Shown piece after piece: positions 1 through 64,000 of a DNA stretch of 64,000 bases (position 1 is the stretch's first letter; every line of letters starts with the position of its first letter). Both the position numbers and the translations under genes were made by a program. A model generated the notes under the pieces. That model saw only the letters and a program-made list of their open reading frames with translations, had not been told where the DNA came from and ran no database searches. Origin of the DNA: Paraspadella gotoi (lineage: Eukaryota > Animalia > Chaetognatha); the NCBI GenBank assembly GCA_051294375.1, contig JBJCIZ010000239.1, positions 2,865,476-2,929,475 on the forward strand, read 5' to 3'.

Positions 1-2407
1 GCTTTTTTAAAGGAGGTCATGTCGGTGAAAGTGACGAAGGATCGCTCGCACGAATGTTCGGGAAGAAGCTTTTTTCTGTTCTGCTTTTTGACTTCCTTGT
101 TGTTGGAATCGGATTTGTCGGTGGATGAGGAGGAGGAGGATTCGCTGACGAGATCCGACGGCGGAGGGACTGAGTTTTCTAGAGAATCCTTTTCGAAAAA
201 AATAAATCAAAATATATAAGAGAAAAAATAAGCAACTAATAAAACAAAAACACATAAGCTGAAAAATCACAATGCAGCGGTGAGAGCGACTTTACCTCTA
301 ACTCGACGATCGGCATCGTGGTGCTGTGGAATAGAATTTGAGGTCCGGTTCTAATGAGTTTGCTGAACCTCGCCGCCTTCTTCTTTTCCATCTCCAACTT
401 TTGAAACTCGTGAAGGGAGAGGAGGTTCTAGAGAAAGAGTTGTTAGAGACAATGTATTCCGAGGAGAAGAAGAGAAAGGTGCAAAGTCGCTCAAGGAAAG
501 GCAAGACTCGAACCTGTTTCTCCGTTTCCTTGGCCTCCTCGAGCAACTCTTCCTGCGTGAGTCTCCGCACGGCGGCGACGTTCTTCCGCGACGCCATCTC
601 CGCCATCATCTTCTTCCGAATTTCATCCTCTTTCTTCCGCCGATCGGATTCCGCGGATTTCAGAGACGTCGTCGCTCTGTCATATATATATTAAGAGAGT
701 GGTCTTTTCATACAATTGAAACATTCTTTGAAACATTATACCACTTCATTGATAGGGAAGCCAGGTACTCTGGGAGTGAATAAACGAGACTGAGAAAGAG
801 TCTTTATTGAAAGCTTGAAGGGACCTGCTATGTCATTATGTAAGAGTGATGGAGGCCTTAAACAACCAAAGCCTGTCTAAAGTCAGGGGCAAGATAGCTT
901 ATTTATCAAATGAATGGATATTTTTTATATTGGTTTTACAATTTTCATATCAAAAAAACACAAAACAAAAAAATTAAATTAGGTTAAATGAAAGTTAATC
1001 GAAAAATATCGGGATTAAGGAAATCTTGGTACTCCAACCCGGCCGTCGCTTCCTTCAGCAACTCGGAATACCAGTAAACGTCTTCTTTGCTTACAACTCA
1101 ACTCTTGAATTTACCACGACATAAATGATAGTTGATAAATCAAAGTCAATCAACCAATGAATAAATCGTTGAATGAGTAAAGGACTTCAAAATCAAAAAA
1201 CAAATTACTATTTAGACTTCGAAGTTGGAGACAGAGAGAGTCAGATTCCCCCGACTCAACGATGACAAGGTTCGGAAAAGAAAAATTTAAAGCCGCGGAA
1301 CATCGGGTCTTATAACCTGACTTTGGTCCTCGGGGGTGCGTCGGCGTCGTTCTTTGCTCCTTCCACGCCCACTTCCGCTTTCCTCTTTCGCCGCGCCGGC
1401 GCTCTTTTCGGCTCCGCTTTCGTCCCCTTCGGCTCCGGCGCCGATCGCCCGCCCTTCTTCGGCGTCTCCTTTCTTTTCTTTTTGTCCTTAATCTCTTTCC
1501 TTTTCGGCTCTTTGTAGGCCTGGAGCCGGATAGAAGTGTAAATATGTATAAGAGAGGAACTTTTGATTTATAGGAAAATGAAATTGAGCTCCTCAATCTA
1601 ATTTGCATACAGTCGTTTTGGAAGTCAACTCAAATTCACAACTGATGTTAATTTGTGGTGATATATTGCAGACATTGTTTTAATTTTTTTTCGTTGCATT
1701 AAATGAGAAAATTGTGTTTTGTTTTCAGACAACGAAAATTTATTATTATTATTAATTTATACATTTATATAAATTATACTACAAAACGGACATGTTTCGG
1801 CTATAATGTTAGCCTTCATTTTGCGCTGATGAAGGCTAACATTATAGACGAAATATGTCCGTTTTTTATTATTAATAATAATAATTAATTTTCGTTGTCT
1901 GAAAATAAGACACAATTTTCTAATTTAAAGGCGATAAATTGCGAATTTACGCCGGTCAAAGTGCTAATAAACAAAATCATAATATAGAGATTCATGTTTA
2001 TTCATGATCATAAATCGGCCTCTCGACAAAGACGGCGACGCAGCGCTGCGCGAGGAAATACCTTGGTGTAGACTCCGCCGGTGGGCGCTCTCCTTTTCTC
2101 TTCGTCCTCGCCCTCATCGATCTCGGCCTCACCTTCCGCGTTCTCGTCGATGTCGAAGTCGGAATCGACTCGATCCGAATCGGAGTCTTCCGATTGATAA
2201 TCCTGCGCGAAAAGAGAGAATCTCCGAGTTAACAAAACTGATCATCTTACTCCCCGCGATTCCAACTCGGGTTCGGCCCACCCCGTCGTCCTCCACTTCT
2301 TCGAATCCACCGTAGGTCGTTTTGTAAAACTCGTCCTCTTCCTCCTCGTTGAGAAGACGCGCCATTTTGGAGCCGGCGTTCTCGCGACGCTCACGCACCG
2401 CCGCCAT
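1..2407 (-). CDS. VPS72: VPS72/YL1 (H2A.Z chaperone, SRCAP/TIP60 subunit); multi-exon, 3' end runs off the window
   Basis: Spliced translation MAAVRERRENAGSKMARLLNEEEEDEFYKTTYGGFEE..DYQSEDSDSDRVDSDFDIDE..TK|AYKEP..LTQEELLEEAKETEKQ|NLLSL..GPQILFHSTTMP..CERSFVTFTD matches YL1 family motifs. Exons approx 2407-2282, 2202-2062, 1519-1317, 676-514, 428-297, 188-<1. Confidence 0.93.
692..950. repeat. Dispersed ~250-bp intronic repeat, family A, copy 1
   Basis: Shares CACTTCATTGATAGGGAAG..GAATAAACGAGACTGAGA..GATGGAGGCCTTAA..AAAGCCTGTC.AAAGTC.GGG.CAAGATAGCTTATTTAT.AAATGAATGGAT with 26146-26353, 38429-38678 and 60013-60195. Confidence 0.9.
1576..1609. repeat. Short hairpin repeat, family B, copy 1 (degenerate)
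   Basis: AAATGAAATTGAGCTCCTCAATCTAATTTGCATA; related to AAATGAGATTGAGTTC(C/T)TCAATCTCATTT at 52868 and 61590. Confidence 0.75.
1699..1928. mobile_element. Long imperfect palindrome carrying a Penelope-type minimal hammerhead motif (inverted pseudo-LTR relic)
   Basis: Arms AGAAAATTGTG..TTTTCAGACAACGAAAAT..AAAACGGACATGTTTCGGCTATAATGTTAGCCTTCA and TGAAGGCTAACATTATAGACGAAATATGTCCGTTTT..ATTTTCGTTGTCTGAAAA..CACAATTTTCT. The right arm has CTGATGA(1826-1832)..GAAA(1850-1853)..GTC(1857-1859). Confidence 0.7.
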
Positions 2408-5400
2408 TTTGATTTTTTTTTCTTCAAGTTTTAAAATAAAAAGGTTGTTGATGGCCTTTTCACGGACAAAAATAACTGTTTCCTATTGAATCGTTCTGGA
2501 AGGTCAAAAGCATTTTATATTAATAGATCGGTCTCGACAACTGTTGTATTTAGTATATAAAAAACAAAAATAAAAGCTATTTACAATCTGTCAATACGAA
2601 AGCAAAAAAAAAAAAACACAAAAAAAAACACAAATTAGTTTAATCATAAGCCAATTTTATTTAAAAAGAAAATCACGATACAAAGGCATTGTAATTGTAT
2701 TACTAAAAACAAATAAATTAAAAAATATATTTTTAACAACCAAGAGCAACCGAGAAACAAGTAACCTCAATACGAGCCGCGATAACACATCAAAATTATC
2801 ATTTTTTAAAATATTTTGAATTGTTTTCCATAATTATATAGGTAAATCTCCAAACAATAAAAATCCTCACAATCATAATTTTAATATTAAACTATTTGTT
2901 AACACGTATAATATAGGAATAATATCAGTGTGGTCCTCTTTACATTTTAATATGCATAATTTTAACTATAATCGTCAAACGCTCCTCTATTTGAATATTA
3001 TTATTAGAATCAGTTTTTTGCCTAAAATTGAATTGAAAGACCATATCCTTTAAAGTGGATCAATCATTTATTTCATATGAATTTTTGTGACGAACTAATC
3101 TTTGTTAAAAACTGAACTAGATTTTTGAAATCGAGGCTTGTATAAAAATCACACGTCACTTTAGCATTCAGTAATTTCTTTACTAAACTCGACAGCGGGC
3201 ATCGGACGATAAATTCAGATTGGTTATAATAATATTTTTTGTCAAATACCAAAAACACAAAAAATATTCCCACGATCCCATTAGCAAAAGAAAGATTTGG
3301 TGGGTGGATTTGTATACACTGAGGAGAAAAGGCGCGCTCCGCATGCACACAATGAGCGGGCGTAAACTAAGCTGTACACTAAGGCGCAGTGAAAATAGCC
3401 AAATTTTATGTAATCGACATTTGAAAATCACAAAAAATTTTTACCTTTAAATATAATTTCATTGTAGGTAAAACGTGTATTTGACTAGTGACTACAATAT
3501 TTTCACGCGAATGGCAATTTCATTTCAAATTCAAATCTAGCGGTTTAATTTTAAAGTTTTTAAACTATTTTACTATATATAAAATGGCAAACTATTATAA
3601 AAGCCATAAAGTTCACGTGGTAGAATATTTTTTATGATAAATTTCAAACCTTGATATGAATTTCACGAGGCGCTATGGTGCACAAAGCCCAAAAAATCTT
3701 TAGTACATTACCTGTACAAAAGGTTCTGATAACAAGCATGAAGCGAGACAAACGTTCAGCCGAATTAGAACAAGGCATAGAGAAGCTGTTGAAACCGCCT
3801 TAATAGACCCATATTTTTAAAATTTTATTATCATATTGAGAACTGCGAAAACAAACTAATAGATGTCCCTAAAAAATATTCGAACACAAAAAAACTGCAA
3901 TCTAGTATAACTATATATATGTATAGAAGATAGATTTATTAAGTTCGCCACTCTCGATTGCGCAAGGGGATCAAAGCGGCGAGATAGCTCACACAGTGTA
4001 TTAAGTACCGTTTTCGAGCCTTTGTAAGATTAATTTATGAAAAACATGATTTGTATTTTTTTTAAATGAAACTTAACTAAATATTTCATACGAAGTTGAA
4101 AAAAAGTAAAAATTTCAAGAAAAAATATTAAGAATAAGGCAGGAAATGATATACTGGCGTGGAAAATGATCATAAACCAAAAAATATATTAAAGGACATA
4201 TCTATTGTTTTGTTTAAAAATTAATGCCGACATTTTAAAATATTTGTGGCGAAGGGCGAAAAACCAAGGACCAAATTTATCCAGTTCTCAGAAATAGAGG
4301 GTTAACGCATTATACTATATTAATATATTATATTATATAATGTTCCGACAACCGGTTCTTTGCCGCACGACCCAGGCATCAACAAGCGAACCCGCCATTG
4401 ACGAATGTATTAACCGGAACTGAACAGAAATAAAAGATGGTACATGCTGATAATGTTGCCTAGCAAGTTCAATTTTTATCTCACAGCTAGAATTAAAGGC
4501 GTCATTGAATGAACGGAAAGCAAAATAAAGCTTTTTACCCAAAAGTTCCCTCACAGTAAACGGTTTAGAATTGGTATTGAAATAAACTTCAATTAGGAAT
4601 TGTGAAATACGGTGAAATATGGAATATAATGATTAGTGAATAACGGTAGCAAATTATGATTCATGAAAGGTAGCTAGTGGACGATTAATGATAGCTAAAT
4701 ACCGATCAACATATTATCAGGAGCTTCCCTTTAACATAGTAATCTCTGTACCCTCAATCATTTTCATGCCATATTTCATTTATTACCGAAATGGCATTCC
4801 CTGTAAAATAATAATTTTTTTCGCGTTTTACTTTTCACAGGTGAAGATTAAATTTATACCATACAGTAAATTTAGTTACCCTAAAAAACAATATGCAAAT
4901 GAGACGCATAACGGTAAACCAAAAAATAATTCAACCTTCCTTAGTTTCAATTGCTGTATTAAACAAACAAATATTTGAATTACAGCAAAAAGCTCAATTA
5001 TATCTTGGGAGCACTGACTCGAAAAATTCACAAATACTTAATTTCATATCACAAAATTATTAAAAAACTTTCAAAAGTTTAGCAAACTTAGTTGCACGCC
5101 TTCCGGGAAAAAAGCTTAGTGTGAAATTTCTCTTCATGTGATAGCGATTGATTTGATGATGATTGACTTGGTGAGAGAAGGCGCTGCTGATTTTCGAGAG
5201 CCTCATTTATGTAAAAAAATTCTTTCTTTGATGACAAATTACTTACGTGTAAACTCGACGCATCACTGATATGGTTATATTGCTGCGAACAAAAAAAGTT
5301 ATGACTATGGACGAAAAATGCTTACGATATATAGCATAAATACGACGTAAGGTGGTAGCTGTAAAGCACCTCCCCATTATCGCGAGTTAAGGAATGGACG

Positions 5401-5428: not shown

Positions 5429-11398
<5,970 letters not shown>

Positions 11399-12135: not shown

Positions 12136-13411
12136 TTACAACTCGCCCAGGTCCCTCGACCCGATTCTCTCTTCGAGATGAGATTCCAGTTTTTGGATCT
12201 TCTGTTCGAGTTCCTTTTGCCGCCGCCGCATGTTTCCGTGTTGAACGTGATCGACGCTCTTTCCATCCTTGTGGTCGTTCTCGATGGAATCCGCCTGATC
12301 GCGCACCCACTCGTGCTTCTCGAGCTTCTTCTGAAAGTGGGCCAGTTCCTCCTTGAGCGAGTGGAGCTCTTCCGCGGTGAAGTTGGCCTTTTCCGCGCGG
12401 AGCCAGAACTCGAGGACTCGTGGTTCCTTGAATTGGGATCCGCTGCCGCCGATTTTCTCATTGATTCGATCCCAGTTTTCTTTCAACTCTTCCTTTTTAT
12501 CTCTCACTTCTCTCTTCTTCAACATTTGGGTGTGTTCCGAGTTTTCTTGGTACTTGTGAGGAGGGGCGTCCCCTGATAGAAAAATAAAGAACGTTAACTT
12601 TTCATACAAATTGGAAGCGTCTTACCTTCCAGTCAAATGATAAATACAATACGCGTTTAAATATAAATAAATAAACAGACCGACCCAAAAGTAACTACGT
12701 GGGGTAGCTCCGCGAATGGCCGATTCTCAAAGTAAGTGACAAAATGAATAAAAATATTTGGTTTCCGAACCCTTCACCTTGAGGAATCTCATTGGAGACA
12801 GAAAAGTCGTCGTCGTCTTTCAACAAGAGATTAAGTTGATCTTGTTTCTCCTGATGATGACGCAGCTCAACTTTAAGCGCCTCCAACTCATTTTCGTCGA
12901 AGCCGCTCTTCGCCGCCAACTTCCAGAGTTTGTCCACTTTTGGGTCGGCGAAGGAAGCCGAGGTTTTTTCTCCCGGGGAGACTTCGTTGAATTCCTTGGC
13001 GCTGAACTTCTTAGATCCCGGGGTTAGCGCCTCGACCAGCTTTTCCTTCAGGTCAAACTCCAAGACGATCCGATTGAAACTTTGGCGAAGGGCGGCGGCG
13101 ATTTCGCCGTCTTGGTCGTAGCCCGGTCGCATCTTGCCGTGCTTGTGGTCGAGCTCTTTCTGGTCGTGACTTTTTAGGGCGAGGAAGAGAGCGTCCAGAC
13201 GAAGGGGGTCCAACAACTCTTTCTTCTTCGCCTTTTGCCAGACGATGTTGATTCGGTTCATGCGAAAGGGAGCCTCGTTTTCGGGGCGGGACGGAAGAGG
13301 CGAGCCGTCGCCGGGAGAATTTTTATTCGAAGAGTATTTATTGCCTCCACTCGGCTCGATCATCGCGAGACCGAACAGGATAAAGAATCCAATTAATGAG
13401 AGTCGAAACAT
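12136..13411 (-). CDS. LRPAP1: LDL-receptor-related protein associated protein (RAP), 2 exons
   Basis: Signal peptide, then NKYS..PFRMNRINIVWQKAKK, FADPKVDKLWKLAAKSGFDENELEALKVELRHHQEK, FKEPRVLEFWLRAEKANFTAEELHSLKEELAHFQKKLEKH. C-terminal ..LGEL* resembles an ER-retrieval signal. Exons approx 13411-12778 and 12572-12136. Confidence 0.92.
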
Positions 13412-14250
13412 GTTTACAATTCCGTTTAAAAATACTGTGAAAAAAAAAATCGGAAGGTTGACTACTTTGACGAAATAAAATGCGTGTCAAAAAAGAAAAA
13501 AAATTAAACGATTCATTTTCGAAAATAGGACCAACGAATACTAATCTACCTAGTACCTTCTACTAATAATCTATATAAATGGTGTATATATGTATAATCA
13601 GTACAGAAAAAAATTATCGCTACATAAAACACTCGTAACCTTTGAACGATAAACGGAATGTAAAGTGAAAAAAAATCGACTAAAATCGAAAACAAATAAT
13701 CAGAAAAAAATATTAGACTAGATCGTATTTTCAAATAACTGGGAATATTTCATTCTTCATTACTAATGAGAATACTATGCGAAAATGATAAACTTACTCT
13801 TCGTTTGAACGTCTGAATGTTAAATGTTTATCTACACAGGTATAATTAAAATGGACACAGAATCCAGCAATTTTAAATCAAAATCTTAACCACCAAGTGA
13901 CGGGGCACAATAAACTACTATCTCCAAAACAAGACAAGCCAGAGCCGAACAAAGGTCATTTAAATTGTAATTTGAGCATTAAAAGCTGCAAATTCTTATC
14001 CATTATTTCGAAACAAATAAAAATTTCAAAAGCTTTCATTTTTATAATTTCGAGGATAAAAAACGTTTTTTTATCACTTGCTGAAAACTCCATTAAACAC
14101 AAACCATGGACATTGTATCGGCAAAGCAATGCAATTTAAAGTCAAAAAATATCTAGAAGCGATTTCAAAATATTAAAAAATAAAGTAAATTAAAATGTGC
14201 GGCTATGTAAATTTCGTTCTTTTTTAATCAATGCAGTGCAATGCCATATA

Positions 14251-47323: not shown

Positions 47324-50300
47324 CTAACGCTGCAACGAGTTGATGCCATCGATCATTTGCGCCTTAGAGACTTGCGTCAACTTGACGGCATGTCCGTTGA
47401 GTTTGCTCCTGGTAGCGACGGCGGCGTTGCAGTCTTTGAAATGGTTGAACTCGACGTGAACGGTGGCGAGGCCGCCGCCGGTGTTGTGGATGTGAATCCC
47501 GTTGCTGCTGACCGAGAGGCCGTCGAAGAAGTCCAGCAAGTCCGCGTGGGAGACGTCCTCTGGCGCCGAGTCTATTCGCACGCAGGTCGGCCAAGCGGGA
47601 GGAGAGGCCGTCGGCAGCGGCGGGCCGGAAGGAGCGGAAATCATGGGCGGCGCCGGAAACGATCCGGCCCTGTCGGGATTCAACGGCGGCGCCGCGCGGG
47701 CCGGGGAATTATTGCTCAGCATGGAGCCGGGAATCGGAGGACCAGAGGGAGCCATTTGCATGGGAGGACGAGGAATTCCCGACCCCATGACCCCGAAACC
47801 GGAACCGGAGGGATTTAGAGGCGGAGGCTTTAGAGGGAAGTCGAGAGATTGCTGTTGCGATTGGAGAGGCTCCATGATTCGATTTTCTGGACTCACAACG
47901 GCGACTGGCTTGCTGTTATCATGCGACCAATCAAAGCCTGGGTGTTCGGATTGATGAGGCTGCCGAAATAAAACGGTAAGTGTTATAAAGAAAAACTAGC
48001 GTAAAAAAAGTTGGGACAACTTTAGACAAACTTGTTGCAAAGCGATGCCTAAAGGTCTGAATGGCTGCGATGGAAGAGGGCGTGGGGACGAAGGTTTGGA
48101 TAAATTAGCGTCGTAAGAACGGCCCGTCCGAACTTCCTCGAGTTTGGTGGCGATGTCGCGAACGGGAATATCCTCTATCGAGACGCGATACTTGTCCATC
48201 AACATTCGACCTTCGTAAGCGAACGTTTGACAATAACTGGGGGAATTATAGAAATTGTAAAATTAGTATTAATTTCTTCAAAACTAAGCTTAAATTTCTA
48301 GCGAATCAAGCGACTCACGTGGCGTAATCGTTGATTTCGACAAATGCCTTCCCGTTGGTCGTAGTCCCCTGCTTCCAGACAACCCTGATCTGCCCAGGCT
48401 TGATCCCCAATTCTCCGAAGAAGTCGGCGATGCGATGCTGAGCCACAAGCCCGTCGATCCCGCTCATCATGATGGCGTACTTGTTCGACTGGTTCATGGG
48501 AGCGCATTTGGGCGATCGGTTGACGCCGATGGGAGGCGGTTCCTTCGACATGACGTCGGGCGGAGGCGTGGCGGTGGGCCGAGCGGGCGACGGCAAAAGA
48601 ACGTGCGGGAGTCGAGGATCGCCGGCGTCGTTGGCGGCTTCGTCGGTGAATTCGTTGGCCGACGGATCGACCGACGGATTGACGGGCGCGTTAGACTCCC
48701 TCTTCTCTTTACTATCGCCTCGACGAGGTCGGTCGTCTTTTCTTCCATCGTAGCGTCGCCTTTCGTCGTCTCTCTTGTCCTTTCGATCTCGATCCCCGCC
48801 GCGACCGCGAGGACTCCTGTCCTTTCGCGGACTTCTCTCTCGGGAACGCGATCGCGGCCGCGGGGAACGCGAGGATTTTCGATCGCGAGAACGAGATCGT
48901 CTCCGACGAGGACTTCGCTCGTCTCTGGAAGAACCCCATTTGACATCCGCGCTTCGATCTCCGCCTCTTCCTCCTCTTCCTCGTCTCTTGTCCTTACGCC
49001 TCTCCGCGGATCTTTCGCGACTTCGACGCCGCTGCTGCGACTGCTGCGACGGCAGAGGCGGCGGCGGCGCCTTTGGAACGACAAAGGTTCGAATTTCCGG
49101 AGCGAATCCTTCCAGGTATTCTTTGTACCTACGTTATGATGAAATAATAATAAAAAATACAAATTTAAGATCTTCCGAGAACATAATCCTCCGCGAAGCA
49201 AACTGTACCAAATGTCATCGGCGTTGAGTTCGGATTTGAGGGGATGCTTGATTCGGAAAAACTGTTCGGATTTGATGCTCTTGAGCGCATCTTCGAACTG
49301 ATAGCGAACGATGCGGTAAATGTCTATTGTTTTGCGCCAGAAAGGTTGCCTGTCTTTAGCGAGGGCCTCGTCTAATGACGGTTTGCCTGGGAAAATATTT
49401 CACGAATGACTACGGGGTGGCGCGAGGGGGGGGGAGAAACTGTTTGGGACGATAACTACCACCTGTTTTGAAGTAAATAATATCATACAAACGTTATTCG
49501 TTATTTACGCGCAGCTCACCCTGTAACTCGGCAATAAACTGATAAGTGGAGTCATTTCCAGGCGGTGAGGGAAGTTTGTGAACGTTAAGCGGTTCAGCCT
49601 TGGCCAAAAATTCCGAAACGTCTTTATCGGTGGCGTCCGACGGGGCATTGCGAATGTGAACGAAGAAATGCTGGGGCAAGGGACCTGCGGTTACAAAAAA
49701 AAAATTATGACTAAATATACTGAAGTCGAAACTAAAATATCATTTAAGCATCGCTAAAATCCACAGCTAACTTTCTCGACGTCCTTATCTCTCTTTGTTA
49801 GAATAGATTCAGGGTCGTCGTCATGAGATGCAGCACCCAGGCAAATTTTGTCATATTGAAAACTAACCCTCTTTCCTCTCCACTTCGTAAGCGGCGCCGT
49901 TCTCGTTGGCCTCTAAAAACTCCTCGAACTGCTGCTCCGTGATCCTGAAAACCTCGGACGTTCTCTGCACAAGTCTGGATCCGAGGACGGCCTCCATCCC
50001 TTCGTTGACTTTAGCTTCGGATATGAATTCGAGGAGGACGACGTCGTGGGCAAAGTCTCGCCTCTTGTGCAGCAGACGAACTCCGTCCTCGATGAGATTG
50101 GAGTCGCCAACGACTCGACGAATGTCTTTGCGGCTCACGTCGTGATGAGGCCGCACCACGACGGCCAACCAACGCAGCTGCGACGGTGACGCCGCCGACG
50201 GCGGAGAAAAGAACCGCCCGTTGATGGCGCCCGGGGGTGGACCGATGGGCGGGGGACCGGAAGGAGGGGGTCCCGACGGAGGTGGAGGACCGGAGGGAGG

Positions 50301-53300
50301 TACGGGAAAACGATTTCCCATAGGAGGACCACCGAGATTGGGGTTAGACGGTAAAAGCCCGGGAACGCCGGGTCTCATGCCTCGAGGGGGAGCGCTGAGA
50401 AGGGGCTGTTTCTGACCGGGTCGGGGAAGGCCCGAAGGAGGCATGTTGTGGGGCACGGGTCCTCGGAGATTCATGGGGCTGAAATTCGGTTTATTATGAG
50501 GTCCACCCTCGGGACCCATTGGCGGGAACCTTTCCGGTCTTGGGCCCACAGGGGGCGCGAAACTTCTATTTTGTCCCACCATTGACGCCGAGGGGCCTCT
50601 GGAATCTGGACCCATCATGGATTTGGTTTGGGGACTCTCGGCCCGCTCCGCGTTTTCTTCGGTCGGGCGCGTCCCATGCATCGAGTGTAGCCTGGCTTCT
50701 TCCTCCTTCAGCACATGAATGGGCGGTCGTTCGATCCGAAGGTAAGGATGTTTATTTTGAAATGCCTCCTGCACTTCGGTGAATTGGCGTTCCAATATTT
50801 GGAAGCAATTGACCCGACGGCCTTGCCAGACATCGCCACTCCGAGAACACAACGCCGACACGTCGCTTTCGTTCAGAAGCTCCATGACGAAACTTCCATT
50901 CGTTTTTCCGACCATGCCGAAGCAAGGATAGACTCCGCGAGGCCCTTGGGGAATGCCATCCAGAAACTGAAAAGATTTAATCAATATTTTTACTTTTGAA
51001 TTAACCAATTTGGGATAATTATTAATTAATGAATAGTTGTACTTAAATACACAAATACCTCAAGAACGCCTTGATACTCCGTATGCCAATCCATATTGAC
51101 GATGGCGCAAAAGTATCCACCCTGTCGATTTATTTGACCAGAATCCCCGGATTTTCTGTCGGAGGACACGGTCGAACTGTCGTGGGCCGCCGAATTAGAC
51201 GACGCCACGATTGGTTTGGATTTCGGCCCGGGACCGGAGGAAGACGCCGAGTAATTGAAGGGTTTTTCGAAGAGTACATCGAAAGGGTTAGCCTTTGGCG
51301 GCGCGATGGAAGTTTTGGGAAAGGCGGACATTGCCGACGACCCCTGAGAAGGACGGTCGAGATCGTGATTAACGTCGAAACTTTGTGGGAAATTATCCTT
51401 GGGCGGAATCTTGGCTCGATTCTTCTCGTAGTCGAAGAACTTTGGATCCGGAGGCTGATCGACCTCGTCAAAGTCGGGTTGCGTCGGTGCTGACGCCGGA
51501 GCGGGCGTGTCCGAGTCGTGATTAGGCCGAGAACGAGGGTCCGCCAGGGCGCGTTCGCCGGGCGGCGGGAAGAAGCGTCGATGCGCGAGTCGAGGATCAG
51601 CATTGAGGCGACGACCGTTGGCCTCGGGCGGAGTGCCCCGAGAGGCGGGGGGTACTTCGCCCTTAAATTTAGGATTCATCAAGGCGGAATTTCTCTGATC
51701 GGAGTCGCGAGAATCTTCGTTCGACGCCGGCGGGCGATTCCACGGGTTCGTCGGTGGATTCTCGAGCACCTTGTCGACGGGCCGCGGACCCGAAGACGGC
51801 GGCGCCTGTTCGTTTCCGCGATCGTGTCGATAAGAATCGGGCGAGGTGGAATCGAAGGTGGGCGCGGTGCCGAATCCGATCGAGCTGTTTCGATCGCCGA
51901 CTCGATGAGGTTGGCTTTGGAACGGATTCGTCTCGGAGGCGGCGCCCTGGCGATTATCCCAGGCGGAAGGCGTCGTCGGAGCTTGATACCGAGATCGATG
52001 TCGGGGATCGTTTTCGCTCGAATGCGGGGGGAAGTTTAACACTTTATGTTGCGGCGTTGGTGGTTGGTGTTGTTGGTGTTGTTGCGGCAGCACTTGCGGC
52101 GGAAGCTGCGTCGGCACCGGCGTAGGAACGGGCGTTGGAATTGAAATCGGCCCCGCCTTCTTGGCTTCCATTTCGGGACCGGAAAAAGTCGGAATAACGC
52201 CCATCGTCTGCAGAGCCTTAAGCGCCTCTTCCGCTTTGGCCATGATGGTTGCGTCGGAAGATTTGCCCGGCGTTGAGGCCGGATTGCCGACGCGGTTTCC
52301 CATATCGTCGGAATATTGATCTGAACCGGGATAGTTGGCGACGGACCGATTACCGTAGGCCCCTTGGTTCTGCTGTTTGTGGTGCTTTTCGGACGCCGTC
52401 CATGACTGCGAGTCTTTGGAATCTCTTTGAGTCCCGAATCCGTCTTCCCGCGAGGGACTCCTCTTCCTCTTTCCCTCCTCTTCCCGTTTACGCTCCGTCG
52501 GTCCCGACGTCAACGTCGGGGTTCCCAATTTCTCGCGGGCGGTTTGGATCACGAGTCGCATCTCGTTTTTGCTGCTCAGCATTAACCTGGTAATTGCGAG
52601 GTGTGAAGAAGAATCGTGAAAGGATAATTCACAATGTCTTAGTATGAACACCTGGAACAACTTTTACCTCACGGGTTTTCCATGAAGCTCCTGATCGGTC
52701 ATCTGCATGGCGCGTCTGGCGTCTTCGTCGGTGGAGAAGGCGATGAAGGCGTCGCCATTTTCTCCGCCAACAATGTGAACGCCTCCGTCGGGAATAAGAA
52801 GACCCTGGGTGGTTATGTCGGGCAAATTTTGGTTTAATGTTTAGCAGAATAATTTGTGGTTCATTTCAAATGAGATTGAGTTCTTCAATCTCATTTACAT
52901 ATTGTAGTAGTTTAGACCATTTCTCATATCTTTTGATACAGTTTTCATAATAGTCTTATTTTACGGTTTTAGCAATAGTTTTAATGATTTAGTTTTCCAA
53001 TTATTATTCAAATATTTCATAGTAGTATTGTCGCGTTATAAATGGAAGTATTTTTCTTGTTCTGGGAGACTGGCTCATGTTTGATAGAAGATTGTTATTG
53101 TCAAAGGCCTAGCTATTAATCAGCTAGGATTTCAGGGTCGGTCTGAACCACTTAGCTTACCACTTATAATATAATAACTATTATGTATCTTGTGTAATAT
53201 TAATAATGTTAAGTTAATACAATAAATAATGTAATTAACCACTATTGCTTCTCTTTATATTAATTCTTAAACATTATCAAGTAGAACAGCAAGAAGAACA

Positions 53301-53734
53301 ATGCGAGCATTCTACCACTAACCATAAGGTCAACAATAAATAATAATATAAGATGCCCTCCGTTAGAGTGGTGCATCGCGGATGTGGAAATTCAAAATTT
53401 CCAACCAAGAATCTTGGCTGCCCATTGTATTCAAGATAAACCTAAATCCTATTTTTAATATTTTATACCTTCATACATCTATCCATTCACATTTATCAAT
53501 TTTCTATGCTCTCATCCATTAAATGATCCCACATTTTCATGCTGTTCTCCCAGCTTCTGACTGCACCAACTTTGGAGAAGTCCTAAACTACACTTCACTT
53601 CGCTTAATTCGTCGATTCGCAGTTTTTGTTTTGTTTTGGTAGAAGTTTTACCAGAAACTGACCTTGAAAAATGCCCTTATGTCGCGGGAGGCAGCCGACC
53701 AGGCGAGGTTTTGTAGGCGAATGATCACCGACAT
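47324..53734 (-). CDS. RBM12: RBM12-like multi-RRM RNA-binding protein; multi-exon
   Basis: MSVIIRLQNLAWSAASRDIRAFFK|GLLIPDGGVHIVGGENGDAFIAFSTDEDARRAM..LMLSSKNEM is the RBM12 N-terminal RRM. Further divergent RRMs and an RS/RD tract follow, ending in CVRIDSAPEDVSHADLLDFFDG..VHVEF. Confidence 0.87.
52843..52910. repeat. Hairpin repeat family B, copy 2
   Basis: AGCAGAATAATTTGTG..AAATGAGATTGAGTTCTTCAATCTCATTTACATATTGTAGTA. Confidence 0.8.
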
Positions 53735-54090: not shown

Positions 54091-57000
54091 TCAGGAGACG
54101 TCCGAAGTATCTGACTTGGCGGCGCCGACTTGCGCGACGAGAGCGATCTTGCTCAAGTGGCGGAGATTCGAGTCGATCCTGGCGATCATTTCGCTCTCAT
54201 CCTCGGGCGCGGTCTTGGAATCGCTGCGACGTCCCGCTATCAGGTTGACAAAATCGCGCGCGTTTTGGGTCAAGAGTTGTTCGGGGTCGGAGACTTTGAC
54301 GTCGACCGATAAGGCCCACTTGAGGGCGTCCTCGCCCAGGTGGTCCTCGAGCGATCGGCGGTTGTCTTCGCGTCGTTTCTGCTCCTCGACGCGACTTTGG
54401 CGTTTGGCGTCGAGAAATTGTTTTGCCTTGAGATGATCCGTTTGAAATTGGATGGTCAGTACCTGAAGAAGATTGTCCACCTGAAAACGCAAAGGATATT
54501 AGCTTAATCGCAAAATACAGCTTGCAAAAGAAACCCACAATAAGTATAACTCCCACCGAAGATTTTATGGAAGCCCCGCCGGTTCCCGGACAGCCGGCGA
54601 CGAAATTCTGCAAGCTCATAGCGTATTGCTTTCCCACTTCGTCCCCGTAAGTCGCGGTCATCATCTCTTGCTCCTCGGTGGACATGTTTTCGAAGAGGGC
54701 CGAGTATTCGGGCCCGAGCGATAAGTGGGCGTGGCTCTGATAGAGTTCGATCATTTTCGAGAGCTGCTCCTTGTCGACGGCGATTTCTTTAGACTTCAGG
54801 TTGGCGGGAATCTCCTTCGTGAATCTTTTGTTGTCGAAGAGATCGAAGTCTTCCTTGATTGAGATTTCCGTGAGGCCGGCGGAAGAGGCAGCGCCCAAGA
54901 TGGAAGAGGAAGCTTCCAACTTGACCCTATTCGTTTCGGTGAGGGCGAAGGAGATTTCCCCCTTTTCTTTTTTCCTCAAAAATCCAACGTTGACTTTGTT
55001 GTTTTTCTCATCGAGCGAGCGACGCGCCTTTGCCGCCGCGGATTTCGCTCGAGCCAAGATCTCTTCCGGGGTCATTTCGTCGGGGATGGCCTGAAAGAAT
55101 GGAATTCCCTTTAGTGAATGACCTTTAATTAGAGTACTGTGGACGCAACAAGTTTCAGAGTAAGAATGATTTATTTTTCAACAACGTTATAAACAATAAC
55201 AGTCAAAATGCTCAGATGCTAAGTCTATTACAATGGTATTTACAAAGGTCAACGTTTGACCATAAAGGTCAACGTTTTGACCATAAATAAGTTGGGGGAA
55301 TTGAGCGAGGTAAGTTCGGTAAGGTCAAGTGGTTTGACCGAGGTTGCGTGTTCTAGAATGTTCGTCCACCGTACTTCTTTTAGTAACGAACTTACCTGGA
55401 ATCTCCCCTGACCGGTGAAGTAGTGGGAATCGAATTTCCGCAGCCGCATTCGCTGCAGCGCCGCCCGCTCCACCTCCTTCCGAATCTCCTCGTCGCCCCC
55501 GAACTGATCCACCTCCATCCAAATGTTGCCCTCTTGATCTTGCCATGGGATCGAAACTTCGGATTTGGGGTTGGAGGACAAACTCGAACCAATGGACAAA
55601 ACGTCCTGATTAAATAGATATTATTATATATTACATAACAATGAATCTACTAGCTCCAATGTAAATTCTAATGTAACGCATCTTATCATACTTTGGCCGT
55701 GAGACCCATCTCTCGCATCGTGATGCCTCGCATGAACTCAAAGTTGCCTCTCATCATGAGCAGTTTCTCCTTGCTCAGCAGCTTGAGTCCATAGCTGAGG
55801 AGGCGTCGCGCCTCGGTGAAGTAAATCGTGTCGGGAGCGTTGTATCTCATTGCGTTTTGGCACATAAGATTGAAGTCGGACTTGAACCTGGTCATTAATC
55901 AATAATCTCATGATTAAGGATATATATATATAACAAAAGGGAAAACGATCAACATTGAGCGAAAAAGAACTTACTTGTCTACCGATTCGTAGGCCTCTTC
56001 CTCGATATTATCGTTCATGGTGCTGAAATCCATGGGTTTTTCAATGATGGCGAAGTAATTGGGGGCGATGGTCTCGTCGATGGGGTAAGCGAAGAACTCT
56101 TGCTCGTCCCGTTTTCTCAAGACCTTGGTCACGTACTCGAGGCAGTTGCGCAGGGCGTCGACGGGCTGCGGCGGCTCAGCCACGCGGACGCACATTTGAA
56201 TCCGAGGCACGGAAGAGGAGGAAGAGGAGGAGGGAGAATCACGTATCGTCTTGCCGAATTTGAGAGGGAGGGACTTCGGGGAGGAGGAAGGGGACGGACG
56301 GAATAGGTCAGCGTGATGCTTGAAGAGATTCGCCGAGGAGGTGGACGAGGAAGTCGGCTCGACGACGAACGGCGAATCTCTAGCAAAAGTCTCTTCAGTG
56401 CTCTTTGAATCTGGAGAAGAGGATCCAGGAGGATGTTGAGAAGTAGGCCGAGATATAATGGGATGAGGAAGAGTTTGAGAAACATTCGGTCGTGTGGGAG
56501 TTGTAACGGGTTCCGAAAGCGCCTCCGTGGTTGCTTGCGCGCTACGAGAACCGGCGTTGGCGCCAAACGACACCTCGAAACTGACGGATTCCTCGGACAA
56601 GAGACCATCGGACGTTCGGGCGTCGCTGAGGTCGGAGTCGGCGACGGAGGAAGGAGCCGACGGATCGAAAACGGATCCTTTTTCAAGAATCTCGCAGTTG
56701 CTCTCCTCGCTCTCCGCTTCGCTTATGTTTTCCGTGACAGGTTTGTAAGTCGACACGAGGTCTTGTCGTTGAGGAGAAATCGGCGACAAGATAACTTCCG
56801 AGGGAGGTTCGTCTTTATTCGAGGCCGGAGGCGGCACCGACGGAACAGATGGCACCGGTGGCGGAACTGGAAAGACCGGGGAGACCGGGGTAGCCGCGGG
56901 CGTAGACGCTTGTGGCGTCGGGGAAACTATGGAAACTGTCGAAGCATCGCTGGAGGAGCTGATCGTCGGCTTCTGTTTCGATTGTGCTTTAGACTGGATG

Positions 57001-58103
57001 AAGCTAAAAATGTTTTGATTGAACGAAAGATTGGAATCTCCGGAGAGCGACGATGACTGATCTTCCGGCAGCGCCGCTGTAGCTGCTACGGTTGGCGGAG
57101 AGCCGGATGAAGGAGCGGTGACGGGCGAGGCGGCGGTGGGCGGCGTTTTCGACTCTTCCTTCGTCTCCGTCTTCATCGCCTCAAACAAATTCGTCGGCGA
57201 TGAAAAATCCGTTTCTTCTTTGAGCCTCTTAATCGGAGGTTCGCCTTCGCGATCCTGGGTTTCCGTCTTAAAGGAGGAAGACGCGTGGAAGGAATCGGGT
57301 TCGGTCTTCTTTTTCTTCATCTTTTCTTTCCTCTTTTTTTCCTTTCTCTCCTCCTTCCTCCTTTTTCTTTCCTCCTTTGACTCCTCCGAGCACCGCGCCT
57401 CCTCTTCCTCCTTGTGCCGTTTTTTCTTCTTCTCCTTTTTCTCCTTCTTGTGAGCTTCGGGGAGATTCTCCACGTCCGGCTTGATGTCGGAGAGCTTCAA
57501 CACGATCTTCACGGGAGGGGGCATGGGGTTTAGGACGGGTAGCGGGGAGCTCGGACCCGCGAGTTTCGTAGGCGAAGGAGAGGAAAAAGGTTTGATGTCC
57601 TCCTCCGAAGAATCGGGGGAGAAATTGGCGGAGAGAGGAAGGACGTCGTCGCGAAGGGCGGGCGCAGAGACGGTTGGGTCGAAGCGCGCGGGAGCAGAGA
57701 TAGAATCGGGGAAATCAGAGGCCGCGGATCGCGCGACATTTTTCGGCAGTTTGATCTTGATCTTGGATTTCTCCTTTTTCTCCGTCATCATCGAATCGAG
57801 GAATTGTTTTCTTTTGCTCGACTTCGGAGTCTTCTCCGTCGCGTCCTTTGACTTTTTCTTCCGCTTTTCCGGCGACTCGAGCGACAAAAGGGGGCGTTTC
57901 GGTGGGCGTGGCTCTCGGTCCTCCAGGGACGAGATTTTATTCAATTTCAAAACGGGGGTGATCAAGGGGGAGGGGAGGGCGAGGTTATGGGGCCTGACTT
58001 CCTGCCAAGGGAAGTCGGAGTCGTCGGGTCGAGTCTCTAAGGGAACGTCGGAGCTTGAATTGGGATCCTCGCCCACCGAAGGAATTTTCTTCTTTCGTGG
58101 CAT
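54091..58103 (-). CDS. BRD7/BRD9-family bromodomain protein (SWI/SNF subunit); 5 exons
   Basis: Bromodomain DEQEFFAYPIDETIAPNYFAIIEKPMDFSTM..FKSDFNLMCQNAMRYNAPDTIYF; DUF3512-like LGPEYSALFENMSTEEQEMMTATYGDEVGKQYAMSLQNFV..VDNLLQVLT. BRD7 vs BRD9 not resolvable. Confidence 0.9.
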
Positions 58104-59566: not shown

Positions 59567-62500
59567 CTACAGCACGGGCGCGGAAGGATAGATGCTGTCG
59601 TGGTGGCTGCCGTGGCTGGACATGTGCCCATATGGTGGCGGCGGGGTCCGACTTCCGCTGAAGGAATGAAGAGGCGGAGTGCCGCTCGACCCCGGCGGTC
59701 CCATCGGATGTTCACTGAAAAATACCATTTTTTTAAAGACTACTACAAAATTAATATTATATGAAATTGGCACAACCAATATATATTTTATATTTTATTA
59801 TATAATATAAATAAAAATAAACAAAAATGGAAAAAAAAAAACGCGAAAATGTTTTCAGCTCAAGTCAAGCAAAAGTCAAGCTCTAAATTCGAATAGAGCT
59901 GTTCATTTGTTCCAAGTCGCAACGACCGGCAATGACATCGGCAAGAGCGCAAATGGACAGAAAGCAAGAACTCGAGTCGTATTCAAATTGAACTGTCTCA
60001 CTCGTTGGTTAATTTTCATACAATTGAGACATTCTTTGAAATATTACATCACTTCATTGTTAGGGAAGTCAGGTACTCCGGGAGTGAATAAGCGAGTCTG
60101 TGAGAGAGTCTTACGCCATGTCATGTCCTATGTCATTATCTTGTAAGTGCGATGGAGGACTTATCTCACAAATGCCTGTCCAAAGTCATCCATTCATTTA
60201 TTAAATTTTCTTATAATTGTTACATTGGATGTACCAATTGCGTAAGAAAATTCTTATGAAATTGGGTACAACCAATATAAAAATTATTATTATTATATTA
60301 TTCTAATTAAAAGCCACTAGCGATTGATAAACGTTACCGATGATATCAGCCGGTAAAAGCCGTTTACCTGTAAGTTGGATTAGAAGCGGCGGCGGCGGCC
60401 GCTCCCCTGCTACTCGCGCCGGCGCTTTCGTTGAGGCTGACGTCGGCGACGGTCGTGTGAGACTTGTGTCCGCGAGCCCGATTGTGCGGCGGCGGCGGCG
60501 GCTCCGGCGAGTCGTTCCGAGTCTCGTAACGTCGGGACATGTAATGAGGTCCTGAGAAATCCAGGCATTTTTATACAAAAAAAAAAAAAAAACCCTTTGC
60601 CCTTCGCCCCCCCCCACACCCCCTCAAAACCGGGCCGACCTGTGGTGTAATTGTTGACGGCGAGAAAAGGGTCGTTCTCGTGATCTTCGAGGCCCTCGAG
60701 ATTTCCCGAGTCGCCGAAAGTCTTCCAAGCGCAAGAGGCGATGAGCGCTAGGAACGTGAGGCTCAGGCCCAACGCGGACGCTCCTGAAAACGGAATCGGG
60801 GGGAAAATCGAAATTTAAAATCTTTCTGGTCGAAATTAATATCAATTAATGATTCGAATAAAATGGAAAACTCTGTATTGCGGGCGCGGAGAAAATCAGC
60901 CGTTACATTAGTAAAATGTGTCAACCGAAATGAGATAAAAAATTATTGCGAAAGAGTTATATTATATGAGAAGGAGAATTATAGTAAAAAAAACATTTAA
61001 AAATGATAAAAAGGTAATGATTACCCTTACCGAGCAAAACGAGAGAGACTCCATTGAGTCCAGTGTAACATAAACCGTGGAGAGCGTCGAGAAGGAGATG
61101 CTTATTGCTCTGACATTCGAGAAGAGAGTTAAGCCCGAGGGCGGCCGCCGACGAGGACTCCAGCTCCATTCTTTGAGAGATGGCGTTGACGAGAGGCGGA
61201 ATTTTGCGTCGATCCGAACCCGAGGTCATGTACTGCGCGACCTGAACCCAGAAAGAAGGCGCAAAGCACGGCTCAAGATTCTCTTCTCCCATTTTTTTTT
61301 TCAGCGGGAAACGCCTAATATGACCCCTACCCTTTGGCGCAGATCCTCCATCGCCAGTCGGGCGTCGTGCAGTGACGACGTGACGGTTTGAATCGCGCGC
61401 GCGTAGCGATCCGACGCCGGGACTTCGTCGCCCGACGTTTTCGTCGATGAGCAGTTGAGAAGATAGTGGAATCGATTGTAGTGGGATTCGTGGTAGAATC
61501 CTCCGTAGTCGCGGATGAAAGCTGAAAACAAAATAAAAATAAAAATAAAAATAAAAAGAGATGTAGCAGATTAATTTGTGAATTGTCTGAAATGAGATTG
61601 AGTTCCTCAATCTCATTTGCATATTGTCGTATTCTGAAATAAGATCCTCTTTTTCGAGAAAAAAAATTTCCGATCGTCGAAAGGAAAAAAACCAACTTTT
61701 GGGATCGAAACATAAGTCGGCCACGCCCACTCCGACGCCGAGATATCCGCTGACGATCGTCCAGGCCAGGACGAGGGTGATGGTGGCCAGCGCCGCAAAA
61801 AGGAAGAGGCAGCACTTGGAGCGCCTCGCCAAGCCAATCACGAGCAGGAGAACCACGAAAGTGGTCCAGGAAAAGAAGGCGGCGGTGGAGAGCCACCGAA
61901 AGTCCTCGCCGGATCGTGTGTAAGCCATGTAAACGTTCACTGATTCGCGCTCTCTGAAGAAAAAAAAATGATAAAAAATAAAAAATAACAAAAATTATTA
62001 TTTAAGTATAATCTTAAGGCATCTCTTTTCATGCCTTATTTCCAGTGACAGGTGCTGATCGAGTTTGCCCAACTCTTTCTGTCCCGTCCTTAGATCCTTC
62101 TTCATTCTGGCAAGGAGATCTTTCATTCGCTTACGTTCTTCGCGCGGAGCTCGAGTACTGGGATTAAAACAAAAATATTTCATTTATAATTATTTTAATC
62201 AAAACCCACAAAAACGTCAGAAAAGAGTACCCGTCTATCTGATCAAAGAGGTCCTGAATGGCTTTATTGGCTTCTCCTTTGTTGATATTGTTGTTCAGTT
62301 CCCTGACGCTGCCTTTGGCTTTGTAGGCGCGGAATCCCAAATCGCGCACGGAGACAAGAAATTGACGAGTTCCGTCGTTGGCTACCTCGTTACCATAGAG
62401 ACCGGTTCCGATAAACAAAACGCAGACGAATATAAAAGCTGAAAAATAAAAAAAAGTTGCCCTTGGATTTTGTCGTTTTATTCTACACGAATTAAACATT

Positions 62501-63099
62501 AATTTATAAACATACTAATGAGCCAGAAGTTACGGCAACATTTCCCATTTCCTTTAGGGCCTTCGTCCTCCGTCTTTTTTCCATTTCTGTAAAGAAAAAA
62601 TATTTCTTTTATTTTTAATTTTATCTATTCAACAATCATGATTATCTCCAAACCTGGCTCTGCAGCAAGCTTGGCAGCATCGGATGCAAAAGTAGACGAG
62701 TAAAATAAAGAGGGTCAAAAGAAGCCATAAGAAAGGAACGGCAATGAGAAAGAGAACAGATTCGCGATACTCGTTGCTCTCTGTGACAAAAATAAATAAA
62801 AACGAGATTTAGTCACAAGTTAGGGCGAAATTTCAGTCAAAAGGAAAACATACCAGGTTTGAATGTATCGTTGGCGGCAGAAAAATCCCGCTTGAAATGC
62901 GGAAAGGCGTGCAAAAACCTGACAAGCCAGTTGGGTGAAGGAATAGAAGTCGGGGGTCCTTCGGTTTGATACGAAAACCTTCAAAAAAAAGTTTACAGTA
63001 ATATAAAGGAATATCCTTCATAATCTGATATAAGCTATTAATTTATCATTACCCGACAGAGTAGTCGTATCTATCCCAGGAGCGAAAGTCGATACTCAT
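59567..63099 (-). CDS. TTYH: Protein tweety homologue (TTYH); multi-exon, 3' end less certain
   Basis: PNWLVRFLHAFPHF..NDTFKPE..YRESVLFL, IGTGLYGNEVANDG, EDFRWLST, IGLARRSKCCL, GVGVADLCFDP, LLECQSNKHLLLDALHGLCYTGLNG, DHENDPF. Confidence 0.9.
60013..60195. repeat. Dispersed repeat family A, copy 4 (more diverged)
   Basis: TTTTCATACAATTGAGACATTCTTTGAAA..CACTTCATTG.TAGGGAAG.CAGGTACTC.GGGAGTGAATAA..GCCTGTCCAAAGTC. Confidence 0.85.
61565..61631. repeat. Hairpin repeat family B, copy 3 (perfect 13-bp stem)
   Basis: AAATGAGATTGAG-TTC-CTCAATCTCATTT-GCATATTGTCGTA. Confidence 0.8.
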
Positions 63100-63386: not shown

Positions 63387-64000
63387 TTAATCTGGCAAAA
63401 TGGCTAAGTTTACGAGGTGTCTCATGGTGGGGCGGCCGTGAGGGCAATTCCAAGGATGATCGAGCGTCGCCATGTGATCGACGATTTGACGCATTTCCGA
63501 TCGATTGAGCGCCGTGCCGATCATAACGGATTTGCGGCACGCACGGGACGCGAACATCTTTCGCACTCGCGACGGTCGACATAGCGTTCCTGTGAATTTA
63601 ATGAATAATAAATAAATAAATATTTGAAACAAACATTTTCATCTTCATTTACCCGGCGTGAGTTCGGATAGCATGAACAACATCTCCTCCACGTCGCTGT
63701 GACCAAAGTTCCAGTCTTTGCTTATGGGTACGGAGCTAAGTTTAACCCTCTCTCCTCCAGGAGCCTTCGGATCAAAATCAAACTTAAACCCGTTTTTGGC
63801 AAAGACCTCCAGATTCTCCTCCAGCACGATCTCGTTTGCTGGACTGAGATCCAGTCGTTGAGGGATGATGAGTTTCTGACTACGGATGATTGTGTCTCGT
63901 TGCAGAGTCTCGAAGTTGTACTTTTCGTCGGTGGCGTGTTGGTCTATGATGAAGAGATCCTCGTCGAGTTTGACGACGATGAATCCCAAATTGAACTGAC
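63387..64000 (-). CDS. PMS2: PMS2 mismatch-repair endonuclease, C-terminal two exons (5' part outside the window)
   Basis: [19 protein letters not shown] metal-binding motif, [28 protein letters not shown]. Intron 63590-63652. Confidence 0.96.

Follow-up and report, generated by a model that had tools for sequence, protein, structure and literature searches.

Are sixteen unrelated genes that follow one another on a single strand transcribed independently, or do they share precursors that are resolved afterwards by the addition of a spliced leader (SL)? The second answer was put forward in a preliminary description of the window, that is, of the whole stretch of 64,000 nucleotides analysed here. 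It is the one favoured by the present analysis, in which transcription of the genes as several multi-gene precursors, cut to single mRNAs by SL addition, receives a probability of roughly 0.7.

Sixteen genes on one strand

All 16 gene models lie head-to-tail on the minus strand and are unrelated to one another. In the direction of transcription the run begins with the 3' end of a PMS2-like gene (63387..64000; MutL_C), whose 5' end lies outside the window. It is followed, 287 nt past the PMS2 stop, by the Tweety gene TTYH (59567..63099; Pfam Tweety), a BRD7/9-like bromodomain gene (54091..58103; Bromodomain and DUF3512), a gene which we take to be RBM12-like (47324..53734), the TRM10-family gene TRMT10B (44574..46520; tRNA_m1G_MT) and an orphan (39912..44415) coding for a low-complexity, P/S/Q-rich protein of about 1,400 aa, for which the Atlas matches, all at 0.80 or below, were uninformative and provided no name. 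Then come a DENND5-like gene (30071..39063; uDENN, DENN, dDENN and RUN domains; an incomplete model with a gap of Ns inside), PSMB6 or proteasome beta 1 (28092..28877; identified by Pfam and by the tree described below), a presumably SPFH/band-7-like gene (25268..26936; a spliced model of 336 aa) and a RAD51-family, RAD51C-like gene (22525..23820; Rad51). The run continues with a LOTUS-Tudor gene (20388..22468; Tudor and a weak OST-HTH match, E=0.005), a single-exon rhodanese gene (19551..20156; Pfam), FCSK (14251..19131; fucose kinase/pyrophosphorylase, Pfam), LRPAP1 (12136..13411; Alpha-2-MRAP), AGAP (5429..11398; Ras-like, PH, ArfGAP and ankyrin domains) and the 5' part of VPS72 (1..2407; YL1), which extends past the window edge.

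The expected Pfam family was recovered from minus-strand pieces for 13 of the 16 genes; the RBM12-like gene, the SPFH-like gene and the orphan rest on ORF models spliced at GT-AG introns, the single exons of which have no matching Pfam family. The models comprise 62-64 GT-AG introns with a median of 92 nt, unlike the near-intronless kinetoplastid clusters. None of the 99 plus-strand stop-to-stop ORFs of at least 85 aa passed the Pfam cut-off (two gave weak matches below it), 19 spacers and long introns scanned for coding potential revealed no plus-strand exon, and the only strong block in them (27154-27474) scored higher on the minus than on the plus strand. Hidden plus-strand genes were rejected on these grounds, and the proposed 16/16 orientation holds. 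The window yielded no tRNA gene and no Rfam family at gathering score, and it contains no ribosomal protein or ubiquitin gene.

The chance of 2^-15 originally attached to this orientation is correct for a single window, but not as a genome-wide significance. Under independence, 0.34 runs of at least 16 genes are expected per genome of 22,072 genes, a figure that rises to 1.2-1.9 once the published operon fraction is taken into account. Such a run is thus expected 0.3-2 times per genome of this kind, even without long units. This bears on an unlikely reading, according to which the whole run of at least 16 genes is one unit of at least 64 kb, a kinetoplastid-like directional cluster resolved by SL addition and 3' cleavage. 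It would account for a strand that never switches in 64 kb and for a run that has no terminus in the window, both ends being open. It would also fit a BAC of the chaetognath Spadella cephaloptera, on which 14/14 oriented host genes share one strand over about 120 kb and all four minus rows are transposons. Window and BAC were, however, both selected for co-orientation.

The six shortest stop-to-ATG gaps (56, 158, 231, 287, 356 and 419 nt) were reproduced exactly on recomputation. The remaining nine of the 15 measure 737-3021 nt, including TTYH>BRD (1463 nt), DENND5>PSMB6 (1193 nt) and orphan>DENND5 (848 nt). These nine could house promoters, which speaks against a model of shared precursors; the three named lie outside the stretch aligned to RNA, which equally weakens the single-unit reading. 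AATAAA occurs in 6/15 spacers and is not diagnostic. A transcript-to-transcript gap of less than 250 bp, as in the published operon rule, is found directly at 6/15 junctions (three from stop-to-ATG distances and four from RNA contigs, one junction being in both sets), and the length of one contig would add AGAP>VPS72 as a seventh.

It is improbable, more so than a single unit, that each gene has its own promoter within the upstream 3'UTR or spacer, the SL merely replacing the outron, and that co-orientation is a tail event or the outcome of selection that disfavours collisions where genes are dense. A 16-gene run is indeed not improbable genome-wide, and most trans-splicing in Paraspadella gotoi is non-operonic, with 10,197 trans-spliced genes against 3,565 that sit in validated operons. 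Between RAD51C and LOTUS-Tudor, however, stop and ATG are only 56 nt apart, with an acceptor 36 nt past the stop, which leaves no room for a donor and almost no free DNA for a promoter, and an operon with a 3-nt gap is documented in the phylum.

Leader use in the lineage and acceptor-like sites

The closest PSMB6 proteins are transcript-derived and share 81.6-88.5% full-length identity with that of the window, whereas named animals reach at most 72.3%. A tree of 70 rows was built from the window protein, that of one transcript locus (L001) and 68 of 136 stored proteins, leaving out short proteins, P0004 (identical to the L001 protein) and most further insects. The window and L001 fall into an 18-row clade with a support of 100/100 and a stem of 0.71. 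The L001 transcript begins with 19 nt identical to the 3'-terminal 19 nt of the S. cephaloptera leader SL2.0, a match with a chance probability of about 4e-11. L001 alone represents a close relative among the 19 PSMB6 loci, the remaining 18 of which yielded no synteny and lack the 19-mer. In the window, the 19-mer is absent at up to three mismatches and neither Rfam nor the 19-mer revealed an SL RNA gene, which in S. cephaloptera sits in the 5S cluster. The 74-nt UTR of L001 did not align to the window DNA upstream of PSMB6. LRPAP1 exon 1 (no homologue at 1e-15 among 396 candidates) and the rhodanese protein (no exact match in the protein collection) provided no second lineage marker. Judged from the tree and the L001 leader, and hence from a single gene, the window very likely belongs to an SL-using chaetognath lineage, one not recognised in the preliminary description. 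Tree and leader also led us to reject an origin from a nematode, a tunicate, a flatworm or Xenoturbella.

Acceptor-like sites were scored with a matrix built from 64 cis acceptors of the window itself. In the preliminary description an AG had been picked before the ATG of 12 genes. All 12 lie at the distances given, yet only five score like typical acceptors, namely those of TRMT10B (7 nt before the ATG, preceded by a T32 run), BRD, LOTUS-Tudor (20 nt), LRPAP1 and the orphan (58 nt). Six are in the bottom 10% (TTYH, RAD51C, FCSK, VPS72, RBM12 and rhodanese), and that of PSMB6 is at the 19th percentile of the cis acceptors. Half of the AGs picked are probably not the acceptors really used. Better-scoring AGs are located before the ATGs of RBM12 (80 nt), FCSK (20 nt), VPS72 (88 nt), BRD (30 nt) and RAD51C (22 nt). 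For the 15 genes whose ATG lies in the window, the best AG scores exceed those of spacer interiors (p=0.0007 within 60 nt and 0.0002 within 100 nt; the null windows overlap and the p values are approximate). No good acceptor occurs within 100 nt of the ATG of TTYH, AGAP or PSMB6, which speaks against the model of several precursors and, for TTYH and AGAP, against a single unit.

It is scarcely credible that these AGs serve 5'UTR introns as ordinary cis acceptors, or occur by chance, and that trans-splicing is missing from the window altogether. Such an explanation probably applies to the SPFH-like gene, the ATG-proximal AG of which has upstream donors scoring 7.3 and 4.6 and is, judged from these scores, probably cis-spliced to upstream exons, the donors of which lie at 27746 and 27167, in keeping with the coding-like block at 27154-27474; that six of the 12 picked AGs score like non-sites also agrees with it. 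On the other side, a strong donor is absent from most of the spacers that have a good acceptor (RBM12, TRMT10B, orphan, LOTUS-Tudor, FCSK and BRD), and the PSMB6 orthologue of the relative is SL-capped. BRD has acceptor-like AGs 20, 30 and 336 nt before its ATG and a top donor score of 2.0 in the spacer, while the one fair donor of LRPAP1 is located within colinear RNA.

RNA across the spacers

Assembled RNA contigs from one run (X1) were aligned over 10900-20700, which covers 4/15 junctions and four gene starts; two further runs, X2 and X3, gave only three and one short pieces, respectively, and no added information. None of the runs listed is registered as RNA; X1 represents spliced RNA because its contigs contain GT-AG joints, with seven such introns spliced out. 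The listed pieces reproduce 28/30 depth bins to within 3.3 units. Most introns are thus empty while spacers are covered, which argues against a DNA background, and DNA contamination was rejected as the source of the spacer cover. Three of the four spacers are bridged by spliced RNA contigs. One contig of 2,433 nt runs colinearly through LOTUS-Tudor, rhodanese (with both flanking spacers) and FCSK exon 1, and the AGAP contig shares 50 nt with the contig at the LRPAP1 3' end. Contigs that cross two genes do not establish a single transcript, and overlapping UTRs and outrons can yield continuous contigs when each gene has its own promoter.

The fourth spacer, FCSK>LRPAP1, contains a candidate intercistronic region with a trans-splice acceptor (13435..13559, minus strand). 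FCSK RNA extends to 13560, followed by a T-rich hole of 125 nt in the contigs that ends exactly at the top-scoring AG (13436-13435), predicted for LRPAP1. The LRPAP1 contig starts at 13434, the first base past the AG that had been picked beforehand in the preliminary description, 23 nt before the ATG, and thus matches it to the base. This position is one of 148, at one of the four gene starts covered. A predecessor ending in G would have shifted the break; all published chaetognath SLs end in A. No cis joint onto 13434 is among the joints listed, which again disfavours a purely cis-spliced window, and with FCSK RNA stopping 125 nt short of the LRPAP1 acceptor a separate promoter would have almost no free DNA. 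The contigs do not break at the other three gene starts covered (rhodanese, FCSK and AGAP), and no leader on any window gene is among the contig loose ends listed, beside which 95 further loose ends exist. The hole and the blunt LRPAP1 start offer a weak hint of trans-splicing, as filters can create holes.

The AGAP contig measures 6,607 nt, 2,822 nt of which lie past the stop and bring its end near 2607; the distance from the AGAP stop to the candidate VPS72 acceptor is 2,840 nt. Provided that the exon model is right and the UTR unspliced, the AGAP 3'UTR would fill the 3-kb gap to VPS72. A candidate AGAP 3' end would then lie beside the candidate VPS72 acceptor (2588..2661, minus strand), where an AATAAA at 2661 and a T-rich tract precede an AG at 2589-2588. 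Over 19400-29000, X1 contains 71% of the words, coding exons account for 44% and short spacers for 6.5%, so that much of the two long spacers (27%) is likely present in RNA as well. Long stop-to-ATG gaps are likely to be mostly long 3'UTRs rather than promoter space. Each junction examined by RNA closes to 125 nt or less, a point in favour of the otherwise unlikely single unit.

A chaetognath operon model and known polycistronic systems

According to the model of several shared precursors, RNA polymerase II would transcribe through several genes, presumably from shared promoters. Each upstream mRNA would end by 3' cleavage near the unpaired T-rich AG of the next gene, and the 36-nt chaetognath leader, with an A at its end, would be spliced onto this AG and cap the downstream mRNA. 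We infer such SL addition for window genes from the leader use of the lineage, the contigs and the LRPAP1 AG, which make the mechanism proposed at the outset very likely, half of its AGs excepted. A likely seven-gene operon of about 24 kb comprises RAD51C as candidate first gene of a tight cluster, LOTUS-Tudor, rhodanese, FCSK, LRPAP1, AGAP and VPS72; PSMB6 and the SPFH-like gene may form an upstream extension of it.

The window is a further example of an operon type already known in chaetognaths, and a good one of a system that is little studied. It offers one candidate trans-splice site defined to the base, and a candidate operon of 7-9 genes near the published record. SL-resolved operons have been known in the phylum since 2008 from the RPS14-PCNA operon and BAC 35A21 of S. 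cephaloptera (PMC2481426). In P. gotoi, surveyed genome-wide in 2025, 18% of genes are in operons under a rule of less than 250 bp between gene models, with a maximum of nine genes per operon, and trans-splicing affects only about half of chaetognath genes (PMC12460157). Some units of the window may already stand in Supplementary Table 1 of that study. The nine-gene maximum and the partial trans-splicing weigh against a single unit, although the 250-bp rule would split units at under-annotated UTRs.

The wider claim that chaetognath housekeeping genes form directional clusters of at least 16 genes and 64-120 kb, with one or few promoters, resolved by SLs and hidden so far by the 250-bp rule and under-annotated 3'UTRs, is likewise unlikely. 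If it were true, these would be the longest animal polycistrons, and the whole run as one unit would be about twice any published maximum found (7-9 genes). An intron-rich animal would have converged on the kinetoplastid-like directional transcription of housekeeping genes, and control over genes for DNA repair, the germline and signalling would move to post-transcriptional steps.

Among known systems, chaetognath operons are closest to the window, by phylum (tree and leader), by unrelated housekeeping genes arranged head-to-tail, by upstream 3' ends near downstream acceptors, candidates in the window (PMC2481426, PMC12460157), and, on BAC 35A21, by a long co-oriented host-gene array (14/14; PMC2481426). 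The window differs in a run of 16 genes against the published maximum of nine (ribosomal protein, ubiquitin and proteasome genes) and in AGAP, DENND5 and TTYH, which belong to signalling and membrane classes reported as depleted from chaetognath operons. Ciona, Oikopleura and Macrostomum likewise use one leader pool for operonic and monocistronic genes (PMC7986045, PMC8629364, PMC11067885). Tunicate and flatworm operons share short or absent intercistronic DNA and loosely related housekeeping genes, reach seven (Ciona, SLOPPR) and nine genes (Macrostomum), and differ in a leader sequence of presumably independent origin. The operons of Caenorhabditis elegans, with 2-8 genes (cited in PMC8629364), have intercistronic distances of about 100 bp, similar to the T-rich 125-nt FCSK>LRPAP1 gap, but employ the operon leader SL2, whereas no operon-specific leader has been reported in chaetognaths. 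Kinetoplastid clusters share the long unbroken one-strand run of unrelated genes with SL processing, as predicted for the window; in kinetoplastids, tens to hundreds of genes are transcribed solely from strand-switch regions. The window genes, in contrast, are intron-rich (64 introns scored), and the SL is found on all genes in kinetoplastids and on about half in chaetognaths.

Gene content, strand and lineage

The window has about 43% GC, a CpG observed/expected ratio above 1.1 in all 2-kb bins and three N gaps, and is animal-like. Thirteen genes were named by Pfam matches among 106 minus-strand pieces (MutL_C; Tweety; bromodomain plus DUF3512; TRM10; DENN/RUN; proteasome; Rad51; Tudor; rhodanese; fucose pyrophosphorylase plus GHMP; A2M-RAP; Ras/PH/ArfGAP; YL1). 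A further three minus-strand genes, an orphan and two that we take to be RBM12-like and SPFH-like, were modelled as spliced ORFs, for which Pfam gave no corresponding family. On the plus strand of the whole window none of 99 ORFs (at least 85 aa) reached the Pfam cut-off, a coding-potential scan of 19 stretches of spacer or long intron revealed no exon, and neither tRNA nor Rfam genes were found in the window. The proposed run of 16 consecutive genes on one strand is thus real. The six stop-to-ATG gaps quoted in the preliminary description were exact on recomputation, and the remaining nine measure 737-3021 nt. The TRM10-family protein (44970-46520) carries about 400 aa without Pfam match ahead of its methyltransferase domain. 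Several repeats lie in introns: a SINE- or MITE-like element of 180-240 nt in four identically oriented, always intronic copies (705-949, 26146-26354, 38448-38678, 60013-60239; 67-84% identical; no Rfam match), a 230-nt imperfect palindrome in VPS72 (1699-1928) and a 68-nt repeat common to RBM12 (52842-52909) and TTYH (61564-61631).

Judged from one gene, PSMB6, the window is very likely chaetognath. The closest PSMB6 homologues are JGI/Logan proteins from contigs of about 1 kb, and a scan with their alignment yielded 19 loci, one of which (L001) is a transcript-derived locus of a close relative. In a 70-row tree the window and L001 fall inside one 18-row clade (100/100, stem 0.71), to which the window protein is 81.6-88.5% identical, compared to at most 72.3% for named animals. 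The first 19 nt of L001, which are followed by a 74-nt UTR, equal the last 19 nt of SL2.0, a spliced leader (SL) form of Spadella cephaloptera (Table 3, PMC2481426); a search of the whole window did not find this 19-mer.

The odds of 2^-15 put forward for the run are valid for a single window but do not amount to genome-wide significance: for 22,072 genes, 0.34 runs of at least 16 are expected per genome if orientations are independent, and 1.2-1.9 given the published operon share. Since such runs are expected by chance, the run by itself proves no long unit. A single transcription unit of at least 16 genes, which an unbroken array would suit, is unlikely. In the published S. cephaloptera clone BAC 35A21 (Table S5 of PMC2481426, 24 rows, some prediction numbers skipped), 14/14 oriented host-gene rows, spread across about 120 kb, are plus, a further host row is unoriented and all four minus rows are transposons. 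This clone was likewise chosen for operon content, so that it hints at strong strand persistence rather than measuring it.

Acceptor sites before the start codons

All 12 AGs described as acceptor-like exist. Against a matrix built from cis acceptors of the window itself, five of them have typical scores, the one before PSMB6 scores weakly, and the other six rank in the lowest tenth of cis-acceptor scores. The best AGs of 15 gene starts outscore spacer-interior windows (approximate p=0.0007 for 60 nt and 0.0002 for 100 nt). A good acceptor without a strong donor upstream precedes BRD, RBM12, TRMT10B, the orphan, LOTUS-Tudor and FCSK, and the sole fair donor upstream of LRPAP1 (13639) sits inside colinear RNA. 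The site of the SPFH-like gene, with two strong donors upstream, is probably cis. Cis-splicing only is very improbable for the array. No good acceptor lies within 100 nt of the ATG of TTYH, PSMB6 or AGAP, the last as already remarked. A GC-rich, coding-like block without ATG (27154-27480) ends on a strong donor and is open and in frame with the SPFH-like gene; it may be an exon of the 5'UTR, or else extend the protein at its N terminus from an unseen start.

RNA contigs and the probable RAD51C to VPS72 operon

Assembled contigs of one RNA run (X1) were aligned to 10900-20700, and their seven GT-AG joints identify the run as spliced RNA. Between 20700 and 18967, one contig (2,433 nt) follows the genome without a break through the LOTUS-Tudor stop, rhodanese and FCSK exon 1, and it goes on with the FCSK introns spliced out. 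Another follows the FCSK 3'UTR as far as 13560, and the next starts at 13434, exactly the first base past the AG quoted for LRPAP1 (by chance 1 in 148 positions, with one start out of four hit). The contig of the LRPAP1 3' end (to 11918) overlaps that of AGAP (from 11967). A depth table rebuilt from these pieces agrees in 28/30 bins, the two misfits lying in a repeat-laden intron, so that most introns and the 125 nt at 13435-13559 are empty and three spacers are covered; one intron carries a depth-4 contig. The X1 contigs show no break at the rhodanese, FCSK or AGAP starts. A separate promoter for each gene with outron trans-splicing is improbable.

In the simplified k=31 graph, Logan contigs correspond to non-branching paths (PMC12424806), and the published chaetognath leaders all end in A (PMC2481426). 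The blunt LRPAP1 start may thus mark a fork with two predecessors, one genomic and ending in G and one not ending in G, neither of them seen; filters can also leave holes. The LRPAP1 3' contig ends at 11918 on the A of a CA, the same A as in an acceptor-like AG; this may be a poly(A) site atop the acceptor of AGAP, an arrangement seen in gapless operons, and nearby polymorphisms could also cause the break. Within FCSK (17031-17757) the contig differs from the genome by four insertions of 1-2 nt and by additional letters where one joint lies; just one frame is open in the genomic exon 17518-17400; assembly errors or allelic differences are likely, not a pseudogene. Hundreds of X1 contigs of high depth that belong elsewhere are drawn to a degenerate tandem array of TAAT within an intron of FCSK (17113-17330).

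The AGAP CDS was modelled at 3,216 nt with 15 canonical introns. Judged by its length of 6,607 nt, the AGAP contig would stop near 2607, within the T tract before the AG at 2589-2588 and just past AATAAA (2661); on this projection the 3-kb gap before VPS72 is likely 3'UTR. X1 contains 71% of the words sampled from 19400-29000, where coding exons make up 44%, short spacers 6.5%, introns 22% and two long spacers 27%. Such cover, despite polymorphism, cannot be reached without a good part of the long spacers, a hint that RNA continues up to PSMB6. The duplicate of 310 nt (24040-24346 and 24653-24962, 98.7% identity), whose second copy is flanked by 10-N gaps, is probably a scaffolding artefact enlarging the SPFH-like to RAD51C gap.

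We favour several SL-resolved operons within one co-oriented array (probability about 0.7), the firmest comprising the seven genes from RAD51C to VPS72 and perhaps extended to nine by PSMB6 and the SPFH-like gene. The array first proposed to be trans-spliced is a real feature with a mechanism that is very likely right, in a system already known in the phylum.

Comparison with known operon systems

S. cephaloptera possesses several SL forms, along with an operon in which a gap of 3 nt separates RPS14 from PCNA, and more clustered co-oriented genes (PMC2481426), and SL genes lie within the 5S cluster (PMC2566580). About half of P. gotoi genes are trans-spliced and 18% lie in operons under a <250-bp rule, with no operon-specific leader reported (PMC12460157); the operon table of that study may already list units from this window. 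The word 'strand' occurs neither in its main text nor in its readable supplements, and 'orientation' is absent from the main text. Among the papers listed by a literature search, mostly of open journals, none was seen to report an animal operon of more than nine genes or statistics on chaetognath strand runs, and the available text of PMC11067885 gives no maximum for Oikopleura. The longest operons recorded contain seven genes in Ciona (PMC7986045), eight in C. elegans and nine in Macrostomum (PMC8629364), and nine in P. gotoi itself (PMC12460157).
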